Below, piece by piece: positions 9,246-40,428 of a stretch of 64,000 bases of DNA. The stretch comes from Candidatus Roizmanbacteria bacterium GW2011_GWC1_37_12 (GTDB lineage Bacteria > Patescibacteriota > Microgenomatia > UBA1406 > GWC2-37-13): contig LBST01000006.1 of the NCBI GenBank assembly GCA_000991135.1, positions 46,663 to 110,662 on the forward strand. The letters run 5' to 3'. Below the pieces are notes generated by a model, which saw only the letters and a program-made list of their open reading frames with translations, had not been told where the DNA came from and ran no database searches. Numbering within the stretch: the stretch's first letter is position 1; each line of letters begins with the position of its first letter. Made by a program: the position numbers and the translations under genes.

Positions 9246-9293
9246 AAAGGTTCTGTCCTTTCACTTCGTTCGCTCGGAATGACAAAGATAAGA

Positions 9294-12941: not shown

Positions 12942-13327
12942 ACTACCCTGATTTTTATAAAAATATTAAAACGATTGCCATCGTAGGTTTATCTGATAAA
13001 TCTGATCGGCCTTCATACAAAGTTTGTAAATATTTAATGGAACACGGCTTTAAGATTATTCCTGTCAATCCTAATATCGAATCAGTCTTTGGTTTAAAAA
13101 GTTTTCAGAATTTAAAAGATATAAAAGAACCTATCGATGTCGTTGATATTTTTCGAAAATCAGAATTTGTCGAACCTATCGTCGATGAAGCAATCAAAAT
13201 CGGTGCTAAGTCAATCTGGATGCAGGAAGGCGTTGTCAATGAAGTCGCCGCCGCCAAAGCCCGTTCTGCCGGATTAACTGTTGTCATGAACATGTGCATG
13301 ATGAAAGAATACAAAAAAATCATTTGA
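12938..13327 (+). CDS. CoA-binding domain protein (YccU/YneT-like)
   Basis: IAIVGLSDKSDRPSYKV...GFKIIPVNP...VDIFR...GAKSIWMQ, a typical CoA_binding_2 pattern. Confidence 0.8.
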   Translation: MNYPDFYKNIKTIAIVGLSDKSDRPSYKVCKYLMEHGFKIIPVNPNIESVFGLKSFQNLKDIKEPIDVVDIFRKSEFVEPIVDEAIKIGAKSIWMQEGVVNEVAAAKARSAGLTVVMNMCMMKEYKKII

Positions 13328-13360
13328 CAATTAAATAATATACTAGTATACTAGTATACA
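13324..13360 (+). promoter_or_regulatory. Promoter (TTGACA-17-TATACT) overlapped by a tandem CTAG palindromic operator
   Basis: TTGACA 13324-29; TATACT 13347-52; TATACTAGTATACTAGTATAC 13339-59 with CTAG centres 8 bp apart. Confidence 0.55.
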
Positions 13361-13363
13361 AAT

Positions 13364-13609
13364 ATGAACAAAGTAGGGGAGCTTATTGAGTCTTTTTTGA
13401 AAAATAAGACAAGCGCTGAAATGCTTGATTTTTTAAAAGGCATTTTAACACCACATGAGTTTGAAAAACTGGTAACAAGATTGCAAATAGTAAAACTATT
13501 AAAAAAAGGCCTCCCCCACCAAGAGATCGCCCGCCGATTAAAAGTTGGTGTGGCCACGGTGACAAGAGGGTCTAGGGAATTAAGAATGGGAAGATTTAAA
13601 AAAATATGA
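13364..13609 (+). CDS. Trp-repressor-fold regulator (YerC/YecD family)
   Basis: 81 aa; LTPHEFEKLVTRLQIVKLLKKGLPHQEIARRLKVGVATVTRGSREL matches the YerC/TrpR helix-turn-helix pattern. Confidence 0.85.
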   Translation: MNKVGELIESFLKNKTSAEMLDFLKGILTPHEFEKLVTRLQIVKLLKKGLPHQEIARRLKVGVATVTRGSRELRMGRFKKI

Positions 13610-13656
13610 AAAACAAAATATTTTCAAATAATTGGTGGATAGATTCCCTCTGGTGA
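13606..13656 (+). CDS. Candidate Trp leader peptide MKNKIFSNNWWIDSLW
   Basis: The ATG overlaps the upstream stop (ATATGA). 3 of 16 codons are TGG, two of them tandem. Alternative hairpins and a terminator follow immediately. Confidence 0.6.
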   Translation: MKNKIFSNNWWIDSLW

Positions 13657-13709
13657 AGCAGATGATTTTTTGGTGGTCAAACCTCTGCTTCAAGCGGAGG
13701 CTTTTTTTA
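13654..13709 (+). terminator. Attenuator: antiterminator (13654-62 with 13684-92) overlapping an intrinsic terminator (13682-88 / 13694-13700 plus T-run)
   Basis: TGAAGCAGA pairs with TCTGCTTCA. CCTCTGC-TTCAA-GCGGAGG is followed by CTTTTTTT. Confidence 0.6.
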
Positions 13710-13724
13710 TTAATAGTTCAAATT

Positions 13725-13800
13725 GTCATTGCGAGCGTCAGCGAAGCAATCTCAAAAATAGATCCCTCGCTTCCCTTCCAGGGTAAACGCTCGGGATGAC
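13725..13800. repeat. Composite palindromic repeat (GTCATTGCG...CGGGATGAC variant of the GTCAT/ATGAC family)
   Basis: Unit 1 is GTCATTGCGAGCGTCAGCGAAGCAATC. Unit 2 is GATCCCTCGCTTCCCTTCCAGGGTAAACGCTCGGGATGAC. It ends 1 nt before the trpB Shine-Dalgarno GGGAGGAG. Confidence 0.8.
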
Positions 13801-13812
13801 GGGAGGAGAAAT

Positions 13813-15120
13813 ATGAAAAACACAAAAATAACATTATCAGATTCGGAAATTCCGGAATATTACCTAAATATTTCTTATTATTTAAGCAAATATCTTAAGA
13901 AACTTCCGGAGCCGCCTTTAAATCCAGGGACCAAAAAGCCTGTCGGCCCAGCGGATTTGTCAGCGATTTTTCCAATGGAACTAATCAAGCAGGAAGTGTC
14001 ACTTGAAGAAAAAATCAGGATTCCCGAAGAAGTCAGGGAGCTATACAAACTTTACCGGCCGACTCCATTGATTCGCGCCTTTAGGCTGGAAAAATTCTTG
14101 GATACACCCGCTCATATCTATTATAAATACGAGGGAGCAGCGCCAACCGGTGCTCATAAACTAAATACCGCGATCGCCCAGGCTTATTACAACAAAAAGG
14201 AAGGCGTAAAAACCCTGGCGACGGAAACCGGAGCCGGCCAGTGGGGTTCGGCTCTTGCCCTGGCTGCCAATTTCTTTGAAATGAAGTTGGTCGTCTTTAT
14301 GGTAAGAGTCAGTTTGGACCAAAAACCTTTCCGAAAAACCGTTATGGAGACGTACGGCGCCGAAGTCTTTGCCAGTCCGTCGGAAAAGACAGAGTTTGGT
14401 AAGAAAATTTTAAAAACCAATCCCGATCATCCGGGCAGTCTAGGTATTGCCATCAGCGAGGCTCTGGAAACTGTCGTAAAAAATAAAGGCTATAAATATT
14501 CTCTCGGCAGCGTCCTGAATCACGTTTTGCTTCATCAAACAGTGGTCGGGCTTGAAGCAAAGAAACAGATGGAAAAAGACGGAGAATATCCGGATGTCAT
14601 CATCGGCTGCGTCGGCGGCGGCAGTAATTTTGCCGGCATTGCTTTTCCTTTTATGACAGATAAATTAAAAGCCAAAAAGAAAGTCCGTTTCATCGGCGTC
14701 GAACCGTCATCTTGTCCGTCTTTAACCAAAGGCAGGTATAAATACGACTTTGGCGATACCGCCCAGATGACGCCGCTTTTAAAAATGCATACTTTGGGAT
14801 CGGACTTTGTCCCTTCACCCATTCATGCCGGAGGATTGCGTTATCACGGCATGGCGCCATTGATTTCGTTTTTATACAACGAAAAACTAATGGAGGCAGT
14901 TGCCTATGAGCAAAATCCTGTTTTTCAAGCCGGAGTCGATTTTGCCCGTACTGAAGGGATCATTCCGGCGCCCGAGTCAAACCATGCTATAAAAGCGACC
15001 ATCGACGAAGCTCTAAAAGCTAAAAAAGAGGGAAAGAAAAAAATAATTCTTTTCAACCTTTCCGGTCACGGCCTTTTAGATCTCAACGGTTATGACAAAT
15101 TTTTACACAAAAAATTATAA
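13813..15120 (+). CDS. trpB: Tryptophan synthase beta chain, TrpB2 type
   Basis: 435 aa with a TrpB2-type N-terminal extension; PLP-lysine motif [10 protein letters not shown]; GGGSNFAG. Strong SD GGGAGGAG. No trpA nearby. Confidence 0.9.
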
Positions 15121-15135
15121 ATCTAAAGTAAAAAA

Positions 15136-16095
15136 ATGGCAGAGAAGAAAAGTGTTACAAAAATGTGGAGCGCTTTAAATCCTTCTATATTTGAAAGGGG
15201 TAGCTTTACTATGTTGTTTAAAAAACTAGAATTACTAAGTGTTGCTCATACAGTTGCTGACTTAGTTATGCCAAATAATGGGGCTATAGAAAATTTATAT
15301 CTAATAGGCTGCGCCACTGCCAATCGAGAAATAAGAGTAATAAAACAAGCTAATCAATCCTTAGTAAATAAAATTTGTATGAAGAATGTTCAAGCAATAG
15401 ACATTGCCCCTCAACTATTAGCTGTTGCTGATAAAAGATTAAGTTTGTTGAAATTATTTGGCTTAGTGAAAAATTACACAACCCAACAACTTTCTGCAGA
15501 ACAAATCAAATTTACAAAAAATAAAATGAATAGCTTAGCTATTTTAGGTATATACGATTTAAATGGTCTTCTAAAAGAAGGATCAGAAAAAAATGACGAG
15601 CCTTTAGGACTTGATGAATATTCAGGTCCAATGAGAGATGTGCTTGGAGAGTTAACTCAAATTTCATCCCTTCAATATTTAAATAGTGAGTTCAAAGAAA
15701 AAGAATTAATAGCAGATTATGATAGTTCTGCTCCTAATCATAATAATAATAAAATAAGAGAAAAACTTAGAAATTATCATAGTAGCAATACTGATATTTG
15801 CGCAATGAGAATAGCAATAAAGCATAAATCTAATCCTGATTCACCTGTTTTTGTCTCAACTTGGTTTAATTTAGTAATGATGAAATCCATCTTTCAAGAA
15901 TTAGGATTAGATTGTCAAATTAATTCATTAGATAGCGATAAAGGGGCTGTTCTTGTTGTCACTAAAAAAGGTTTTCGAAAGGATTATGGAGCATCAAATA
16001 TTGCACTTGCTCTCAATAATGTTTTTGGTAACTTGGCAAACGATCGAATCTTAACTAATTTTGCAAGAAAACTTGTTACATTTTGCAACAACTAA
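15136..16095 (+). CDS. Hypothetical protein, weak class I SAM-methyltransferase-like pattern
   Basis: 319-aa ORF 15 nt after trpB. LYLIGCATANRE and VQAIDIAPQLLAVA loosely resemble MTase motifs I and post-I. Very AT-rich by eye. Confidence 0.45.
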   Translation: MAEKKSVTKMWSALNPSIFERGSFTMLFKKLELLSVAHTVADLVMPNNGAIENLYLIGCATANREIRVIKQANQSLVNKICMKNVQAIDIAPQLLAVADKRLSLLKLFGLVKNYTTQQLSAEQIKFTKNKMNSLAILGIYDLNGLLKEGSEKNDEPLGLDEYSGPMRDVLGELTQISSLQYLNSEFKEKELIADYDSSAPNHNNNKIREKLRNYHSSNTDICAMRIAIKHKSNPDSPVFVSTWFNLVMMKSIFQELGLDCQINSLDSDKGAVLVVTKKGFRKDYGASNIALALNNVFGNLANDRILTNFARKLVTFCNN

Positions 16096-16099
16096 AAAT

Positions 16100-17275
16100 A
16101 TGAAAAAACAAAGAATAATTATTATCGGTGGAGGATCAACTGGATTATCTACAGCTATAAATTTAGCTAAATTTAATGAAAATGAAATAATAGTTTTAGA
16201 AAAATCTTTTGTTGGCTCTGGACAAACAGGTCAATGTTGTGGTTTTGTCAGAACATTTTACAATAAAAAAGAGATGGCTTTTTCCGCTTTTAAAAGTAAT
16301 CAGGAAATTAAAAGAATTTCAAAGCAAAATAATGATATTGAATATATTAAAAAGGGACTTTTAGTTATAAACAGTTTAAAAAATAAAAATCTGTTGATGG
16401 AAAACATCAAAATGTTAAGGTCATTAGGAATTAAGGCAGAATATCTAGAGAATAAACAACTTAATAAAATTAATCCATACATAAAAACTGAAAATAGTTA
16501 CGCCGGATTTGACCCAGAAGCCGGGTATGTGAATTCACGTCTCGTAGTAGATTACTTAAAAAATCAATGCGAAAATTTAGGAGTTAAAATAATTGAAAAT
16601 ACTAAAGTTTTAAATATTAGACTTAAAAAGAAAATTTTTTATATAAGGACTAATAAAGGCGAACTTAAGGCTGCTAAAGTATTTAACGCCACTGCAGCTT
16701 ACTCAAACAAGATCAATTCTTTTTTTGACTTTCAACTTCCTATAAAAATAGTAAAAACCAATAACTGTTTTTATAGACTACCAATGGGCCCACAAAGATT
16801 TACAACTGCGATCGCTGATTTTGTTAACCTTTTCTATATAATTCCCCATAAAGAGTTTATCGATGTAAGTTCACTCACTGTTGATTTAAAAAAACAAGTA
16901 AATCCTGAAGATAAAAACATCTACAGACTTGATGAAAACGCATCTAAGCAATATTTAAATATAATTTCAAAAAGAATAAAAAATGCTGAGAAATCAAGTC
17001 TCTTGGGAGGTTTTGGTTCATGTATAGATATTAGTCCTGATTATTATCCAATATTAGGCAAAATAGATGAAGTTCCAAATTTCTATTGCGCTACCGGCTT
17101 TAGCGGAACTGGCTTTAAACATTTTCCTATGATTGGAATTCTTATGGCAGAAACTATTCTTGAAAAAAAACCAACTTATCCAAACCTAGTATCATATTTT
17201 AATTATAAAAGATTTGAGAAAGAAAAGGAAAAAGAAAGGAAAAAGGTAACCGATAGTTATTTCGTAAAAAAATAA
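16100..17275 (+). CDS. FAD-dependent amine oxidoreductase (DAO family, sarcosine/N-methylamino-acid oxidase-like)
   Basis: Dinucleotide fold RIIIIGGGSTGLSTA...VLEK and a C-terminal ATGFSGTGFKHFPMIG like the GFSGHGFKF motif of MSOX/MTOX-type enzymes. The ATG at 16100 is preferred over the ORF-track start at 16061. Confidence 0.8.
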   Translation: MKKQRIIIIGGGSTGLSTAINLAKFNENEIIVLEKSFVGSGQTGQCCGFVRTFYNKKEMAFSAFKSNQEIKRISKQNNDIEYIKKGLLVINSLKNKNLLMENIKMLRSLGIKAEYLENKQLNKINPYIKTENSYAGFDPEAGYVNSRLVVDYLKNQCENLGVKIIENTKVLNIRLKKKIFYIRTNKGELKAAKVFNATAAYSNKINSFFDFQLPIKIVKTNNCFYRLPMGPQRFTTAIADFVNLFYIIPHKEFIDVSSLTVDLKKQVNPEDKNIYRLDENASKQYLNIISKRIKNAEKSSLLGGFGSCIDISPDYYPILGKIDEVPNFYCATGFSGTGFKHFPMIGILMAETILEKKPTYPNLVSYFNYKRFEKEKEKERKKVTDSYFVKK

Positions 17276-17276
17276 T

Positions 17277-18872
17277 ATGTTAAGCAAATATGAAATAAGT
17301 CGAGGCGGGAGAGTAAAGGCAGCAGGACTTTCTCTGGCAATGTTCACCGATCCTGCTGAGGCATATTTTGGCCATCCAAATGCAATTAATGCTGCAATGA
17401 TGATAGAGACCTTTACAAGGCTTCGCAAATCACCACCAGATGCAATTCGGAATCGTTTTTTTCCTCGCAATCATTCAACTCATGGTATGTTGAAAAATGG
17501 CGCTGCACTATCTCGAACATCAATTACTAATCATCAAGGGATAGGACAATTTTTAGCACATAGCGAAAAAGACGGAACACAAACGGAAACCCAACTGAGA
17601 ATTGATATTGCAGAACAAACTGGTTTTGTAATTCTTGAAGCACATTTAGAACATCAGATAAACAAACTTCAATATCCTTATGGTATGTACTCAAAAATAC
17701 AGGAAGTGAAAGAGTATTTTGCCAGCGGTAATATTCCTGAAGCCCAATTAGCATATGAAAGACTTTTGCTTGCCGGAGAAGAGCTTGGCATCCAAGTTCA
17801 AAGAACGGCAAAAGTGGGACGTGAAGGTTTATTTTTTATTCACCCAAGCATTTCTAGGTTCCCTATTGAGATTGACTCCGCAACTCATGAAAAAATGCAA
17901 CTTAAAGGTAATCAATTAGTTGAAATCATGGTGGAGATAGCTAATCAGAAACAAAAACAATTCGCGTTTGATCATCAATTACCTACACCATTAAATAAAA
18001 TAGATTATCCTCCACTTTATTTTCAAATTGATTTTTTAATCAATAAGGATCGAAGCTTTGCTGTTTCCGATGTTGGCTTGCCAGACGTTGGATTATTTCT
18101 TACCGCTATTGAGAGTGAGGGAAATCAAACGGTTGAGGAAGCAAAACAAACTGTAGCTGGAAGATTGAATAAAGTGTCATTGTCGATATTTAATAAGGCA
18201 ATAGAATACGGTTCAAAAACGATTAGTTTTATCACGAGAAAATCGGTAATAGAAAACCTTGAAGATACTCTAGAAATAAAGGAAATAGAAGTATTACGGG
18301 GTTTGCTTGAAAAAACAGGATTTCAAACAAACATTATCTCTGAAGAACAAGCTCTGGATATGACCCCTGACGATCTTGGCATACTTATGAATGTGGACAC
18401 GTCATCACCTGGTTTTCAAAACCTTCTAAAAAGAAGGCTTGTTGAAGAATCAGTACCCATTCACCCCGACCCTTTTTTATTACTTGCACAAAATGAACTT
18501 ACTGAACTTCCACAAGTTACTGTATCAAAAGAGAGTATTGATTTACTGAGAGGTGTTTTTTCCACAACAGAAAAAACAGATAATATAACAAAATCAGCAG
18601 TTCAACTAGCGGCTGTTGAACGGATTATTAGAAAGTTAGGAATGCCAGATGAATGCGACATTTTTCATATGTACATTCCTGGTCAACCAACTCCCATTCC
18701 ATTTTATCAATTTGACTTAAAAGGATTACAGGTTGCCCTAAACTACGCCGTTGATGCTCCCGAAGTATTACTTAGAGGAATACCTGTCAATCCTGATAAT
18801 GCTGTTCTTTTTGATACTAATGGTAAACCTGTTTATGCAACATTTCGTTATATGTTTAATCAAAAACTATGA
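17277..18872 (+). CDS. Hypothetical 531-aa protein (very tentative ATP-grasp-like ligase features)
   Basis: Long ORF 1 nt after the flavoenzyme gene. LYFQIDFLINKDRSFAVSDVGLPDVG vaguely recalls the ATP-grasp xDFxx..ExNxxPG strand-loop. No firm family. Confidence 0.55.
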   Translation: MLSKYEISRGGRVKAAGLSLAMFTDPAEAYFGHPNAINAAMMIETFTRLRKSPPDAIRNRFFPRNHSTHGMLKNGAALSRTSITNHQGIGQFLAHSEKDGTQTETQLRIDIAEQTGFVILEAHLEHQINKLQYPYGMYSKIQEVKEYFASGNIPEAQLAYERLLLAGEELGIQVQRTAKVGREGLFFIHPSISRFPIEIDSATHEKMQLKGNQLVEIMVEIANQKQKQFAFDHQLPTPLNKIDYPPLYFQIDFLINKDRSFAVSDVGLPDVGLFLTAIESEGNQTVEEAKQTVAGRLNKVSLSIFNKAIEYGSKTISFITRKSVIENLEDTLEIKEIEVLRGLLEKTGFQTNIISEEQALDMTPDDLGILMNVDTSSPGFQNLLKRRLVEESVPIHPDPFLLLAQNELTELPQVTVSKESIDLLRGVFSTTEKTDNITKSAVQLAAVERIIRKLGMPDECDIFHMYIPGQPTPIPFYQFDLKGLQVALNYAVDAPEVLLRGIPVNPDNAVLFDTNGKPVYATFRYMFNQKL

Positions 18873-19258
18873 AATTCTGCACACCAATTAATACGAATAA
18901 TGCGGTGAGGTTTGCCATGAAGTTATTGTTGTCTTCCAAGGAGTCGGTGGACATGACCATGGATATGCAGGGCGAAATAGACCATCCACTGCCGCAAAGG
19001 TATCATCATTTGATAGCACGACTTGTGAAATGTAAGATAACGGTAGCCCGATATATGTACGGAGAAAAAAAATTATTTGAGGAGATTAAGAATCGGTATG
19101 AAGGAGTTCGAGTATATTATGGCGGCAAAATGGACAGGTACCAGCGAATGCTCATTATTGATAAAAAAAAGGGCATGTTTGCGCTGAATGGGAATATATT
19201 TTTCACCACCTTTAAGCCACTTATTAACAGTTTATTTATTTATATTTCAGTTAATTAA
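18869..19258 (+). CDS. Hypothetical 129-aa protein, translationally coupled to the 531-aa ORF
   Basis: ATGA start/stop overlap at 18869-18872. No motif recognised. Confidence 0.45.
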   Translation: MKFCTPINTNNAVRFAMKLLLSSKESVDMTMDMQGEIDHPLPQRYHHLIARLVKCKITVARYMYGEKKLFEEIKNRYEGVRVYYGGKMDRYQRMLIIDKKKGMFALNGNIFFTTFKPLINSLFIYISVN

Positions 19259-19268
19259 TTAACTGAAA
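19245..19268. promoter_or_regulatory. Perfect 24-bp palindrome TTTCAGTTAATTAATTAACTGAAA upstream of trpS
   Basis: Spans the stop codon of the 129-aa ORF and lies 25 nt upstream of the trpS -10 TATAAT (19293-98). AGTTAA/TTAACT half sites resemble TrpR operator half sites. Confidence 0.4.
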
Positions 19269-19305
19269 CAAATAATTTACAAAATATTTAGGTATAATCA
19301 AAACT

Positions 19306-20775
19306 ATGATAGATCAAAAAGTAACAGACTATAGTGAACTGCTTACCAATCTTGGTATAGAAAATAAGGTATTAAGCCATCCTGAATCAAGAAATATTGA
19401 TCAAGTTATCGGTTCTCTTGGCAAAACAAGATCAGATAGTGCTGCAACACTGGTTATGAAAGCTGATGATACATATATCTCCATCATTAGAAGAGACGAC
19501 TGTAAGTTAAATACCAAAAAAGTAAAAAAACTTTTAGGAGTAGATAGTTTAAGGATCGCAACTGATGAAGAATTTATTGAAATCACAGGATTAATTCCTG
19601 GAGCAGCCACGTATTTTAATAAAAATATCACTAAGGTTTTAATTGATAAAAAAGTTTTAGAAAAGGAATTTATAGTTGGCGGCTCGGGAAGTTTTTTATT
19701 TAGTATAAGTCATAAAACATCGGATTTAACAAAAATCCCCGGAAGTCAATTAGTTGATGTTGCTGAAGAAAGTTTAGTAATAACTGATTCAAAATATTTG
19801 GGGAAAAAACGGGTTTTTTCAGGAATCAGGGCAACAGGTAGATTGCATTTAGGTAATTATCTGGGAGCAGTTAAAGGGTTTCTCGAACTTGAAAAAACCT
19901 GCAAATACGAAACTGTTTACTGTGTTGTTGATGTGCACTCAATAACAACCCCATATGATAAAGAAGCGCTTGCCAAAAATAAAAGAGAAATCATCATTGA
20001 TTATTTGGCAGCTGGACTTGATCCAAAAAAAAGTATCATTATCTATCAGTCGGATGTACCGGAACATATTGAGTTGGCATTCTATTTTTCAACAGTTGAA
20101 ACGATTGCGAGGATGATGCATCTGCCAACTTATAAAGAAAAAGTAAAACAGTATCCAAACGCCAATACAATGGCTCTTTTGAACTATCCGATTTTAATGG
20201 CGGCTGATATTTTAATCTATAAAGCTAGCCTTGTCCCAGTTGGCATTGATCAAGAACCACATTTGGAAATCACCCGGGAAATTGCCAGAAAGATGAATCA
20301 ACTTTACGGAACCGATTTTCCTGAGCCTGTCAGGTTTGCTACTAAAGGAGAATATATTCCATCTCTTACTGGCGAGGGAAAAATGAGCAAGACTGTTGCC
20401 GGAAGTTTTATCAATCTAACTGATTCTTTTGATGAAATTAGGAAAAAGATCCGATCAGCTCCGACGGCAACCACATCAGGAGGTGAAATGTCTTCTGGAG
20501 TAAAAACTCTTTTTACTTTTGCCCAATTATTTATCCCAAACGAAGTCGAAGGATTTAAAAAGTCATTTGAGGACAAATCTCTCCAATTTGTCCGACTAAA
20601 AGATGCTATTTCCGAGGCGATTTATAAAGAACTTAAACCATTCCAAGAAAGACGGGCAAAAATCGCCGCTGATCAAAAATATGTTGACGAAGTGATCAAA
20701 GATGGCGCCGAACGCGCCCGCAAAATCGCCAAGGAAACCGTCCGTGAAGTCAAACAAAAGATGGGTTTACTATAG
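19306..20775 (+). CDS. trpS: Tryptophan--tRNA ligase with N-terminal YbaK/ProX-like (aminoacyl-tRNA editing fold) domain
   Basis: Residues about 168-489 are TrpRS (GRLHLGNYLGA, KMSKT). Residues 1 to about 165 match the YbaK/EbsC pattern (LSHPESR...TLVMK...ISIIRRDDCKLNTKKVKKLLG...TGLIPGA...VGGSG). Confidence 0.85.
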   Translation: MIDQKVTDYSELLTNLGIENKVLSHPESRNIDQVIGSLGKTRSDSAATLVMKADDTYISIIRRDDCKLNTKKVKKLLGVDSLRIATDEEFIEITGLIPGAATYFNKNITKVLIDKKVLEKEFIVGGSGSFLFSISHKTSDLTKIPGSQLVDVAEESLVITDSKYLGKKRVFSGIRATGRLHLGNYLGAVKGFLELEKTCKYETVYCVVDVHSITTPYDKEALAKNKREIIIDYLAAGLDPKKSIIIYQSDVPEHIELAFYFSTVETIARMMHLPTYKEKVKQYPNANTMALLNYPILMAADILIYKASLVPVGIDQEPHLEITREIARKMNQLYGTDFPEPVRFATKGEYIPSLTGEGKMSKTVAGSFINLTDSFDEIRKKIRSAPTATTSGGEMSSGVKTLFTFAQLFIPNEVEGFKKSFEDKSLQFVRLKDAISEAIYKELKPFQERRAKIAADQKYVDEVIKDGAERARKIAKETVREVKQKMGLL

Positions 20776-20779
20776 GCGT

Positions 20780-20794
20780 ACACCCTTCGGGTGT
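20780..20794. terminator. GC hairpin ACACCC-TTC-GGGTGT between convergent trpS and HAD genes
   Basis: 6-bp GC-rich stem 5 nt after the trpS stop. Same CACCC-N3-GGGTG type as hairpins at 5747, 6550 and 28856. Confidence 0.4.
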
Positions 20795-20813
20795 CCAGGC
20801 ACGAAATTTTCAT

Positions 20814-21419
20814 TTACAGCAAGAGTTTGGAAAGCTTGAAAACTGATTCTTTTACATTTTTTTCACCAAACCAAAAAGTCTGCCAACCAGATTTCTTTGC
20901 ACCTTCAATAAAATCTTTTCTATCATCAATAAGTAAAATTTCCTCTTCTTTTACACCGACTAAATTTGTTGCTAATTTATATATTTCTCTTTCTGGTTTT
21001 CTGAAACCTACTTCGTAAGAAAGAACAACTACAGAATATTTAATATCTGTAACCATTCCTTTCTCTATAAGTCTTGGCATCATACCTTTATAAAGATTGG
21101 AAATTAACCCTATCTTGTACTTTTTTGAAAGTTGACGGGCAAGTTCATGAACTTCAAGCCGTGGTCGATAATCCCCCATCCAGCTTTCAACAAAGTTATA
21201 ATTATCTGCATTTTTCAAACCAAATTTTTTTATCGCCAATTTCCAAACATCTTGTGGAGAAATTTTTCCTCTTGTAATGTCATCCCATATTTTCCCGCTC
21301 CAAAGCTTATTGAATTCTTCGAAATTGATTTTGAATTTCGAAGTTACCGTCCTAAAAGAATCACTCCAATCATTCATCACTCCACCAATGTCAAAATAAA
21401 TAAATTTAATTTTTTTCAT
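20814..21419 (-). CDS. HAD-superfamily hydrolase
   Basis: Motif I-like YFDIGGV, KIGLISN and LLIDDRKDFIEGAKKSG; 201 aa. Confidence 0.75.
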   Translation of the reverse strand: MKKIKFIYFDIGGVMNDWSDSFRTVTSKFKINFEEFNKLWSGKIWDDITRGKISPQDVWKLAIKKFGLKNADNYNFVESWMGDYRPRLEVHELARQLSKKYKIGLISNLYKGMMPRLIEKGMVTDIKYSVVVLSYEVGFRKPEREIYKLATNLVGVKEEEILLIDDRKDFIEGAKKSGWQTFWFGEKNVKESVFKLSKLLL

Positions 21420-40350: not shown

Positions 40351-40428
40351 GACCCATTTTTATAGGCTAAACCTATAGTATTGCTAGATTGCTAGCACTT
40401 CCTAAATACTCTTATTCGTTCAAATAGT

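Follow-up and report, generated by a model that had tools for sequence, protein, structure and literature searches.

What does a short, tryptophan-rich reading frame do between a repressor gene and trpB2 in the reduced genome of Candidatus Roizmanbacteria bacterium GW2011_GWC1_37_12? We analyzed a 64,000-nt stretch of contig LBST01000006.1 (assembly GCA_000991135.1, positions 46,663 to 110,662 of the forward strand; hereafter the window), in which a TrpR-like gene is followed by a 16-codon leader open reading frame (ORF), an intrinsic terminator and trpB2, the gene for a TrpB-like enzyme. A preliminary description of the window had proposed a ribosome-mediated Trp attenuator at this position, and its coordinates for the ORF, the TGG codons, the 9-bp antiterminator and the terminator were all correct on re-reading. 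The element is very probably a leader-peptide transcription attenuator, in which a ribosome senses charged tRNA-Trp within an operon repressed by TrpR. The proposal is backed by conservation among related loci, by matching changes of leader and terminator between sequence classes, and by a kinetic folding model.

Leader reading frame and RNA elements in the window

The leader ATG (13606-08) lies in the sequence ATATGA, which it shares with the stop codon of the repressor gene (TGA, 13607-09), and the third leader TGG (13651-53) stands directly before the leader stop. Tryptophan occupies 3 of the 16 leader codons, against a background of 0.85% in the 42 long ORFs of the window. Among the 654 ATG-initiated ORFs with 8-30 codons that the two strands of the window contain, adjacent Trp codons (WW) occurred in 4 and at least three Trp codons in 1; the leader was the sole W-rich ORF of this set with a terminator behind it.

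The RNA elements around the leader stop (segments 1 to 4, Table 1) can pair in more than one way. Segment 2, which begins with the leader stop codon, showed perfect 9-bp complementarity to UCUGCUUCA (13684-92). A terminator scan returned CCTCTGCTTCAAGCGGAGG (13682-13700) followed by CTTTTTTT, and the terminator hairpin has 8 bp, a 3-nt loop and a free energy of -10.9 kcal/mol (RNAfold). The minimum free energy (MFE) of a 116-nt region was -31.5 kcal/mol, a z-score of -3.6 relative to 200 dinucleotide-shuffled sequences. Segment 1 repeats the terminator 5' arm and finds a partner in CGGAGG at 13695-13700; its pairing with segment 2 is limited to 4 bp (UCUG/CAGA), and it pairs with segment 4 instead. 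The unconstrained MFE structure is a single long hairpin spanning 13647-13700 (-24.3 kcal/mol), which still abuts the U-run. Refolding recovered the antiterminator and terminator helices of the preliminary description, but its simple two-helix logic proved incomplete, having missed the additional 13647-52:13695-700 pairing.

Table 1. Coordinates of the proposed attenuator elements and of the neighbouring features in the window
Feature	Position	Strand	Remarks
Leader ORF MKNKIFSNNWWIDSLW	13606-13656	+	16 codons; W10, W11, W16; stop TGA 13654-56
Tandem Trp codons W10/W11	13633-13638	+	TGG 13633-35 and 13636-38; proposed sensing site
Segment 1, CCUCUG	13647-13652	+	from MFE and constraint folds; codons S-L-W
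Segment 2, UGAAGCAGA	13654-13662	+	antiterminator 5' arm; first 3 nt are the leader stop
Segment 3, CCUCUGCUUCA	13682-13692	+	terminator 5' arm 13682-89 and antiterminator 3' arm 13684-92
Segment 4, AGCGGAGG	13693-13700	+	terminator 3' arm
T-run, 7 T	13702-13708	+	intrinsic terminator; attenuated 3' ends would be expected at about 13706-13710
Sigma-70-type promoter	13324-13352	+	TTGACA 13324-29, 17 nt, TATACT 13347-52; 11/12 match
TrpR-operator-like palindrome ATACTAGTATACTAGTATAC (CTAG-N4-CTAG)	13340-13359		overlaps the -10 hexamer
TrpR-like repressor gene	13364-13609	+	81 aa, 0 Trp
trpB2 (TrpB-like pyridoxal phosphate enzyme)	13813-15120	+	435 aa, 1 Trp; proposed first regulated gene
orf319, DAO-family flavin adenine dinucleotide (FAD) oxidase, orf531, orf129	15136-19258	+	four tightly packed genes, trpB2 to trpS
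trpS, tryptophanyl-tRNA synthetase (TrpRS) with N-terminal YbaK-like editing domain	19306-20775	+	489 aa, 0 Trp

Conservation in related loci

We compared the window with a set of 120 loci (L numbers) from two scans, one with TrpB2 against genomes and the other with a TrpR-like alignment against metagenomes. The closest genome locus came from a Roizmanbacteria metagenome-assembled genome (MAG), whose TrpB2 is 89% identical to that of the window, and one protein of the window has an identical match in Candidatus Roizmanbacteria bacterium GW2011_GWC2_37. A TrpR-like gene, a short W-containing ORF and a terminator were found in about 29 distinct related loci of Microgenomates-type bacteria of the Candidate Phyla Radiation (CPR), with at least seven sequence classes of leader and terminator. 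The TrpR-like gene was followed by trpB2 in 17 loci, all 17 of which carried a short W-containing ORF and a terminator between the two genes, and 11 of these 17 formed class A, sharing the design of the window.

Class-A loci have a fixed order of elements: ATG, 5-8 variable codons, (N/S)-W-W, exactly three variable codons, CUC-UGG-UGA-AGCAGA, a variable loop, CCUCUGCUUCA..GC(G/A)GAGG and a U-run. Three indels were present in this class (-3, -3 and -6 nt), all multiples of 3. The preliminary description had named conserved tandem TGG codons in homologous loci as a check, and TGGTGG was retained in 10 of the 11 class-A loci, L087 excepted, and in most class-B loci, while the neighbouring codons varied. 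Segment 2 was invariant in class A, and 99% of the cells of segment 1 were paired. Codon 14 encodes S, N, F, D or Q across the class, yet its third base is C (C13647) in 10 of 11 loci, compared with 19% third-position C in the genome. This base forms the bottom pair of the 13647-52:13695-700 helix, and because it is kept despite the amino-acid variation, it points to selection on that helix at the RNA level.

Class-B loci have the same flanking PBP1, CoA-binding, trpR and trpB2 genes and an unrelated terminator, for example GCCGCUCGC/GCGAGCGGC. Their leader ends in NNWWQxxYPRSGWxx before the stop, and its GCGGGUGGC pairs with the new terminator 5' arm. Further classes were represented by L085, by L098 and L100, by L111, by L002, by a group with leaders of the type MY..SWGKPLM (L104, L106, L107, L108 and L114) and by L118. 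All of these except L118 showed their own complementarity between leader 3' end and terminator 5' arm, in other sequences; in L118, which has a WWW leader before trpE, the duplex (-4.6 kcal/mol, z = -0.12) was no better than shuffled. For nine class representatives, the cognate duplexes summed to -118 kcal/mol, compared with a mean of -78 kcal/mol for permuted pairs, and none of 20,000 permutations was as good. A combined Fisher p for the complementarity of leader and terminator was dropped as invalid for related sequences. The distance from leader stop to terminator was 21-35 nt in 23 of the 23 loci with a terminator, 25 leaders having been scanned.

The leader had also been described as translationally coupled to the repressor gene. 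The ATATGA overlap in the window agrees with this, and a start-stop overlap of leader and repressor (ATGA or ATGTATAA) was present in 14 distinct loci (the window, L001, L092, L093, L098, L100/L101, L111, L002, L104, L106, L107, L108, L112 and L114), about half of the total rather than all. In about 15 other loci, repeat elements are inserted between the repressor and leader ORFs. Coupling by termination and re-initiation is therefore plausibly a recurrent feature of these leaders, not an obligatory one.

Folding models and position of the stalled ribosome

In the kinetic approximation, the transcript was ended before the terminator 3' arm, and the output was the probability that the terminator 5' arm was already sequestered. 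The E. coli trpL leader, 100% identical to the annotated trpL, served as a positive control and gave 0.29 with no ribosome, 0.70 with a ribosome stalled at WW and 0.01 with a ribosome at the stop. The window gave 0.83, 0.83 and 0.43, respectively, and so showed the expected contrast between stalled and terminating ribosomes, as did the trpL control. Values for the Trp-repressor-linked loci of classes A-D were 0.74-1.0 for the stalled ribosome and 0-0.59 for the ribosome at the stop, whereas L118 showed almost no contrast (0.58 versus 0.44).

Several observations weigh against a ribosome-mediated attenuator. An equilibrium model, which evaluated the pairing of the terminator 3' arm under a ribosome block, did not separate the states and was dropped; it failed with the trpL control as well and so was no valid test. 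The geometry of the stall is another such point. Toeprint and frameshift-spacer data place the leading edge of a ribosome at about +13 to +16 nt, counted from the first nucleotide in the P site. With W11 in the A site, this reach ends at 13645-13648, so that no more than the two C-G pairs at the base of the 13647-52:13695-700 helix would be masked; a ribosome with W10 in the A site would mask no pair of that helix, and in class B the WW codons lie even further from segment 1. No clear Shine-Dalgarno sequence was seen for the leader. Some relatives have a single W (L002, class D), and WW is replaced by W-R in L087 and by C-W in L001. Finally, the covariation that the preliminary description had asked for was absent within class A, whose invariant helices leave no base-pair covariation to be found; whole helices do change together between classes, and it is from this replacement, among phylogenetically related loci, that the helices draw their support. 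As for the geometry, the WW codons may be held at a selected distance from the structure, as suggested by the exact three-codon spacer and the conservation of C13647.

Proposed mechanism and alternatives

In the mechanism that we infer, the operon would comprise the trpR-like gene, leader, terminator, trpB2, four extra genes and trpS, in this order, and transcription would begin at the operator-covered promoter. A ribosome completing the Trp-free repressor ORF would re-initiate at the overlapping AUG (AUGA) and read the 16-codon leader. When Trp-tRNA is ample, this ribosome would reach UGA 13654-56 and mask segment 2 (13654-62); with segment 2 masked, 13682-89 would pair with 13693-13700 and RNA polymerase would terminate in the U-run. 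When Trp-tRNA is scarce, the ribosome would halt at W10/W11, and the free segment 2 would capture segment 3 over 9 bp before segment 4 exists, so that no terminator would form and trpB2 and the downstream genes would be transcribed. Untranslated RNA would fold through 13647-52 into the long hairpin that ends at the U-run, and termination would be the default because segment 4 has a second partner in CCUCUG (13647-52). For read-through, the stalled ribosome would in addition have to disrupt the C-G pairs at the base of the 13647-52:13695-700 helix.

Three other explanations were considered. The conserved UGGUGG and the helices might be read not by a ribosome but by a factor acting in trans, such as uncharged tRNA-Trp in the manner of T-boxes, a TRAP-like protein or the TrpR-like protein itself. 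In Thermoanaerobacterium (L034), trpB2 does have a bona fide T-box (110 bits) before it, a weak T-box-like match is found ahead of the orf531-trpS triad of L121, and the leader, as noted above, has no clear Shine-Dalgarno sequence. Against this, Rfam searches of 13000-14100 gave no match even at E <= 10, including the Trp_leader (RF00513) and T-box (RF00230) families, and at the gathering threshold no leader family matched in the window, nor did any match this element in 12 related loci; the element is also only about 95 nt long. Direct reading showed no run of (G/U)AG triplets, the stretch 13610-13700 having a single TAG and a single GAG instead of the 9-11 triplets spaced by 2-3 nt of TRAP sites. 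Moreover, the ATG, the frame, the in-frame indels and the stop position are kept while the codons around WW vary, and the other classes have Trp codons in common and no common RNA motif. Recognition by a trans factor is thus very unlikely. We consider it even less likely that the nascent peptide senses free Trp as TnaC does, with high Trp blocking release at W-UGA, the ribosome remaining on segment 2 and stalling at Trp codons being secondary. Such a peptide would regulate in the same direction, and class-A leaders always end in L-W-UGA with the stop codon inside the antiterminator arm; however, the peptide is unlike TnaC on direct reading (it has neither the W12/D16/P24 pattern nor a Pro ahead of the stop), the leaders of other classes have different ends (GWRF or KPLM before the stop), and the C-terminal LW codons are accounted for by RNA pairing, CUCUGG being part of segment 1.

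The least likely of the three is that the hairpin and T-run are a plain terminator of the repressor gene, with trpB2 served by its own promoter and the W-rich mini-ORF fortuitous. Any gene may end in a terminator, and here the terminator and trpB2 are set apart by a structured palindromic element of 80 nt. No promoter-like site was found in 13712-13812 by a scan limited to the sigma-70 consensus, the downstream genes are strongly Trp-depleted, and the ORF, WW, the fixed spacing and the stop within the antiterminator are kept in about 29 loci of several unrelated sequence classes, all of which argues against a terminator of this simple kind.

Repressor gene, promoter and operator

The 81-aa product of the repressor gene matched the Pfam family Trp_repressor (PF01371) with 67.3 bits (cutoff 27). 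It scored higher with the TrpR model TIGR01321 (48.9 bits, cutoff 67.25) than with the YerC/YecD model (35.5 bits), both scores being under the curated cutoffs. Its best PDB matches were E. coli TrpR structures, and the motifs LTP..E...TR and G[IV]AT[IV]TRGS are kept. The alignment to E. coli TrpR retains T-R (the R54 equivalent) and ATxTRGS (the R84 equivalent), residues that we take to serve in Trp binding and DNA reading. The gene had been labelled YerC/TrpR-like; the TrpR half of that label is borne out by the models and the PDB matches, while YerC scores lower; the protein is nearer to true TrpR than it is to YerC.

The repressor ATG follows the -10 hexamer after only about 11 nt. The transcript is predicted to start at about 13359, and the short distance would make the repressor mRNA nearly leaderless. 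The operator-like palindrome resembles E. coli trpO (ACTAGTTAACTAGT). Most of 40 related loci keep the arrangement of TTGACA and operator before their TrpR-like gene; CTAG-N4-CTAG was present in 18 of the 40, and most of the others have one ACTAGT half-site or more. Just one further CTAG-N4-CTAG occurs in the window, at 40384 (TGCTAGATTGCTAGCA); with different flanks and a location between lon and an oxidoreductase gene, it was rejected as a TrpR site.

Downstream genes and tryptophan depletion

TrpB2 scored above the curated cutoffs of NF009057 (705 bits, cutoff 366) and TIGR01415 (655 bits, cutoff 519), and TrpRS above that of TIGR00233 (274 bits, cutoff 177), with an additional match to PF04073. 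In the window, trpS lies four genes downstream of trpB2, at a distance of 5.6 kb; in the relatives L001, L002, L082 and L084 it follows trpB2 directly. The genes from trpB2 to trpS are separated by short gaps or overlap, and no plus-strand terminator was found in 15000-21000. The four genes from orf319 to orf129 are probably co-transcribed, and the regulated unit probably runs from trpB2 through trpS as its last gene, co-transcription being deduced from this arrangement. The earlier view that the attenuator controls TrpB2 rather than a trp operon was accurate in that trpB2 is the first gene behind it and incomplete in that the unit probably reaches trpS. The preliminary description had called trpB2 an orphan, a label that takes more than 64 kb to establish; within the window, homologs of TrpE, TrpG and TrpB1, searched with queries from related loci, were absent.

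The seven proteins from TrpR-like to TrpRS (13364-20775) have 3 Trp among their 2,388 residues, compared with about 20 expected at 0.85%. The TrpR-like protein, the DAO oxidase, orf531, orf129 and TrpRS have no Trp at all, and the four products of orf319 to orf129 together have 2 in 1,383 residues. Because Trp depletion is typical of proteins needed under Trp starvation, this composition suggests that the stretch 13364-20775 is expressed under that condition.

Fusion of TrpRS to an N-terminal YbaK/ProX-like aminoacyl-tRNA editing domain (PF04073) was also found in L001 (4317-5780), L098, L099 and L123, and more distant TrpRS relatives in L121 and L124 have a C-terminal tRNA_bind domain instead. 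To our knowledge, no editing domain has been described for TrpRS.

Homologs of orf531 and orf129 stand directly behind a class-A attenuator in L097 (355-2205). The orf531 family (17277-19258 in the window, including orf129; also in L097, L121, L123 and L124) comprises about 40 homologs, all annotated as hypothetical, and homologs down to 35% identity are always followed by an ORF of 129-156 aa and a class Ib tRNA synthetase gene. No significant match was obtained for orf531 or orf319 in sequence searches of PDB, Pfam and NCBIfam. A confident AlphaFold2 model of orf531 (predicted local distance difference test score 91.5) returned Foldseek matches to eukaryotic-type glutathione synthetases and to the glutamylation domains of tRNA-dependent lantibiotic dehydratases (NisB, MadB, MibB and TbtB), with E from about 1e-6 to 3e-3, the TM-scores being low at 0.3-0.47. 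The DAO-family oxidase matched sarcosine oxidase beta and N-methyl-L-tryptophan oxidase best, with scores under the cutoff in both cases. The pair of orf319 and the DAO oxidase (15136-17275), located between trpB2 and orf531, was not found in the other loci examined.

Other genes behind the cassette

The cassette of repressor gene, leader and terminator also precedes other genes. It stands before a YggS-like pyridoxal phosphate protein and an Asp/Glu racemase in L094 (2492-3825), before an Asp/Glu racemase followed by trpS in four loci (L104, 2347-3051; L102, L109 and L114), before trpG in L106, before trpE in L118 (leader MNHHKNNQTWWWTVHI), and before a small Cys-rich protein of no assigned function in L105, L107 and L108.

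The trpR gene, overlapping leader and attenuator might form a portable Trp-starvation switch of Microgenomates-type CPR bacteria, a tentative proposal that we take to be rather less likely than not; the genes under its control would then define a regulon with uncharacterized Trp-free proteins, possibly new enzymes of Trp salvage or of Trp-tRNA-dependent chemistry. The clearest candidate would be the orf531 family, with its modelled fold similar to glutathione synthetase and LanB glutamylation domains and its succession of small ORF and TrpRS; Asp/Glu-type racemases and the DAO-family oxidase would be others. If this holds, such enzymes occur in organisms thought to be without amino-acid biosynthesis.

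Comparison with known systems

The window element resembles E. coli trpL (14 codons with WW; RF00513) in its short leader, whose tandem Trp codons precede the stop by about 4-5 codons, in an antiterminator that would be masked by a ribosome at the stop, in the GC-rich hairpin and U-run of its terminator and in its kinetic folding behaviour. As in E. coli trp, the predicted TrpR repression involves a CTAG-N4-CTAG operator overlapping the promoter. Unlike trpL, the window leader shows no similarity in sequence or to the covariance model, and it lies after the repressor gene, overlapping its stop, rather than at the 5' end of the mRNA. It also has no strong 1:2 pause hairpin, segment 1 instead copying the terminator 5' arm and pairing with segment 4, and the genes it would control are trpB2 to trpS rather than trpEDCBA.

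The nearest architectural precedent is the trpRBA operon of Chlamydia trachomatis, in which trpR, an intergenic region with an annotated putative TrpL, and trpBA follow one another. Both systems have the repressor gene first, a proposed leader between trpR and an indole-using Trp-salvage synthase, and a reduced genome. The chlamydial TrpL has 59 codons with non-adjacent Trp codons and is a predicted poor attenuator that is unvalidated, and control of trpBA has been taken over by YtgR (PMC7755916). In contrast, the window leader is short and conserved, has WW and a clean terminator/antiterminator pair, and precedes TrpB2 alone rather than TrpBA.

Classical attenuators have been predicted before trpS and leuS in Streptomyces (PMC1262725), and as in these and in E. 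coli pheST/pheM, a synthetase in the window would be under the control of its own charged tRNA. The window differs in that the synthetase would be co-regulated with a salvage enzyme and the repressor gene and lies 5.6 kb downstream, in a presumed common transcript. Trp-specifier T-boxes of Firmicutes (trp, trpS) share with the window element the signal, tRNA-Trp charging, and the choice between terminator and antiterminator as output; however, a T-box of about 200-300 nt reads uncharged tRNA directly and needs no translation, and the window element has no T-box features. The T-box-like match in L121 (5717-5945) is full-length but weak, its 23.8 bits (E 0.002) falling far short of the gathering score; it includes AAGGUGGCAACGCC, has a terminator behind it and stands before an orf531-orf135-synthetase triad.

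A W-rich short ORF lies upstream of trpB2 in 15 non-CPR loci, 11 of which have a WW, WWW or WWWW leader followed by a terminator (L013, L016, L023, L025, L028, L035, L036, L040, L044, L064 and L073). These leaders lie about 100-250 nt upstream of trpB2 in MAGs of Bacteroidota, Ignavibacteria, Deferribacteres, Caldithrix, Syntrophales and Actinomycetota. The preliminary description had singled out textbook trp logic in front of TrpB2; the mechanism is indeed textbook, but Trp leaders before trpB2 are not unusual, as these 11 sampled loci show. In many non-Microgenomates genomes (Dehalococcoidia, Anaerolineae, Gottesmanbacteria and others), trpS lies about 0.1-2.5 kb from trpB2 (L005-L007, L010, L022, L024, L030, L049, L053, L062 and L071), following it in all cases except L030, where it is just upstream. 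The trpB2-trpS pair is widespread.

New here are the clade of the host and the position of the element, behind trpR and overlapping it. Two details are unusual: the overlap of the leader with the repressor gene, and the choice of two pairing partners open to the terminator 3' arm. A full-text literature search found no paper linking leader-peptide attenuation with the Candidate Phyla Radiation. If the proposed mechanism is correct, it would extend classical leader-peptide attenuation to this radiation and, because attenuation requires it, would imply close coupling of transcription and translation in ultra-small, largely uncultured bacteria. CPR bacteria would then track the charging of tRNA-Trp and use both repression and attenuation, in the manner of E. 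coli, but around an indole-salvage enzyme and TrpRS. The overlap of start and stop codons with the repressor ORF suggests a simple way of loading the sensing ribosome without a ribosome-binding site. The cassette could also serve as an inexpensive marker in comparative genomics, by which Trp-depleted genes behind it, including several families of no assigned function, could be flagged as Trp-related.

Reading frame and repeats downstream of the attenuator

A second mini-ORF with WW (13662-13799, MIFWWSNLCF...) directly follows the leader stop. Its ATG and WW are not kept in relatives, which have GATGG, AGTGG or GTTGG and an early TGA, and it was taken as a chance occurrence.

The 80-nt palindromic element (13723-13802) lies between the attenuator and the trpB2 ribosome-binding site. 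Its arms are GTCATTGCGAGCG and CGCTCGGGATGAC, it folds at -33.7 kcal/mol (z = -3.1), and a partial copy is present near 9271-9283. Related loci have other palindromic repeats at the same position or between trpR and the leader. These elements look like small mobile or repetitive extragenic palindromic (REP)-like repeats.

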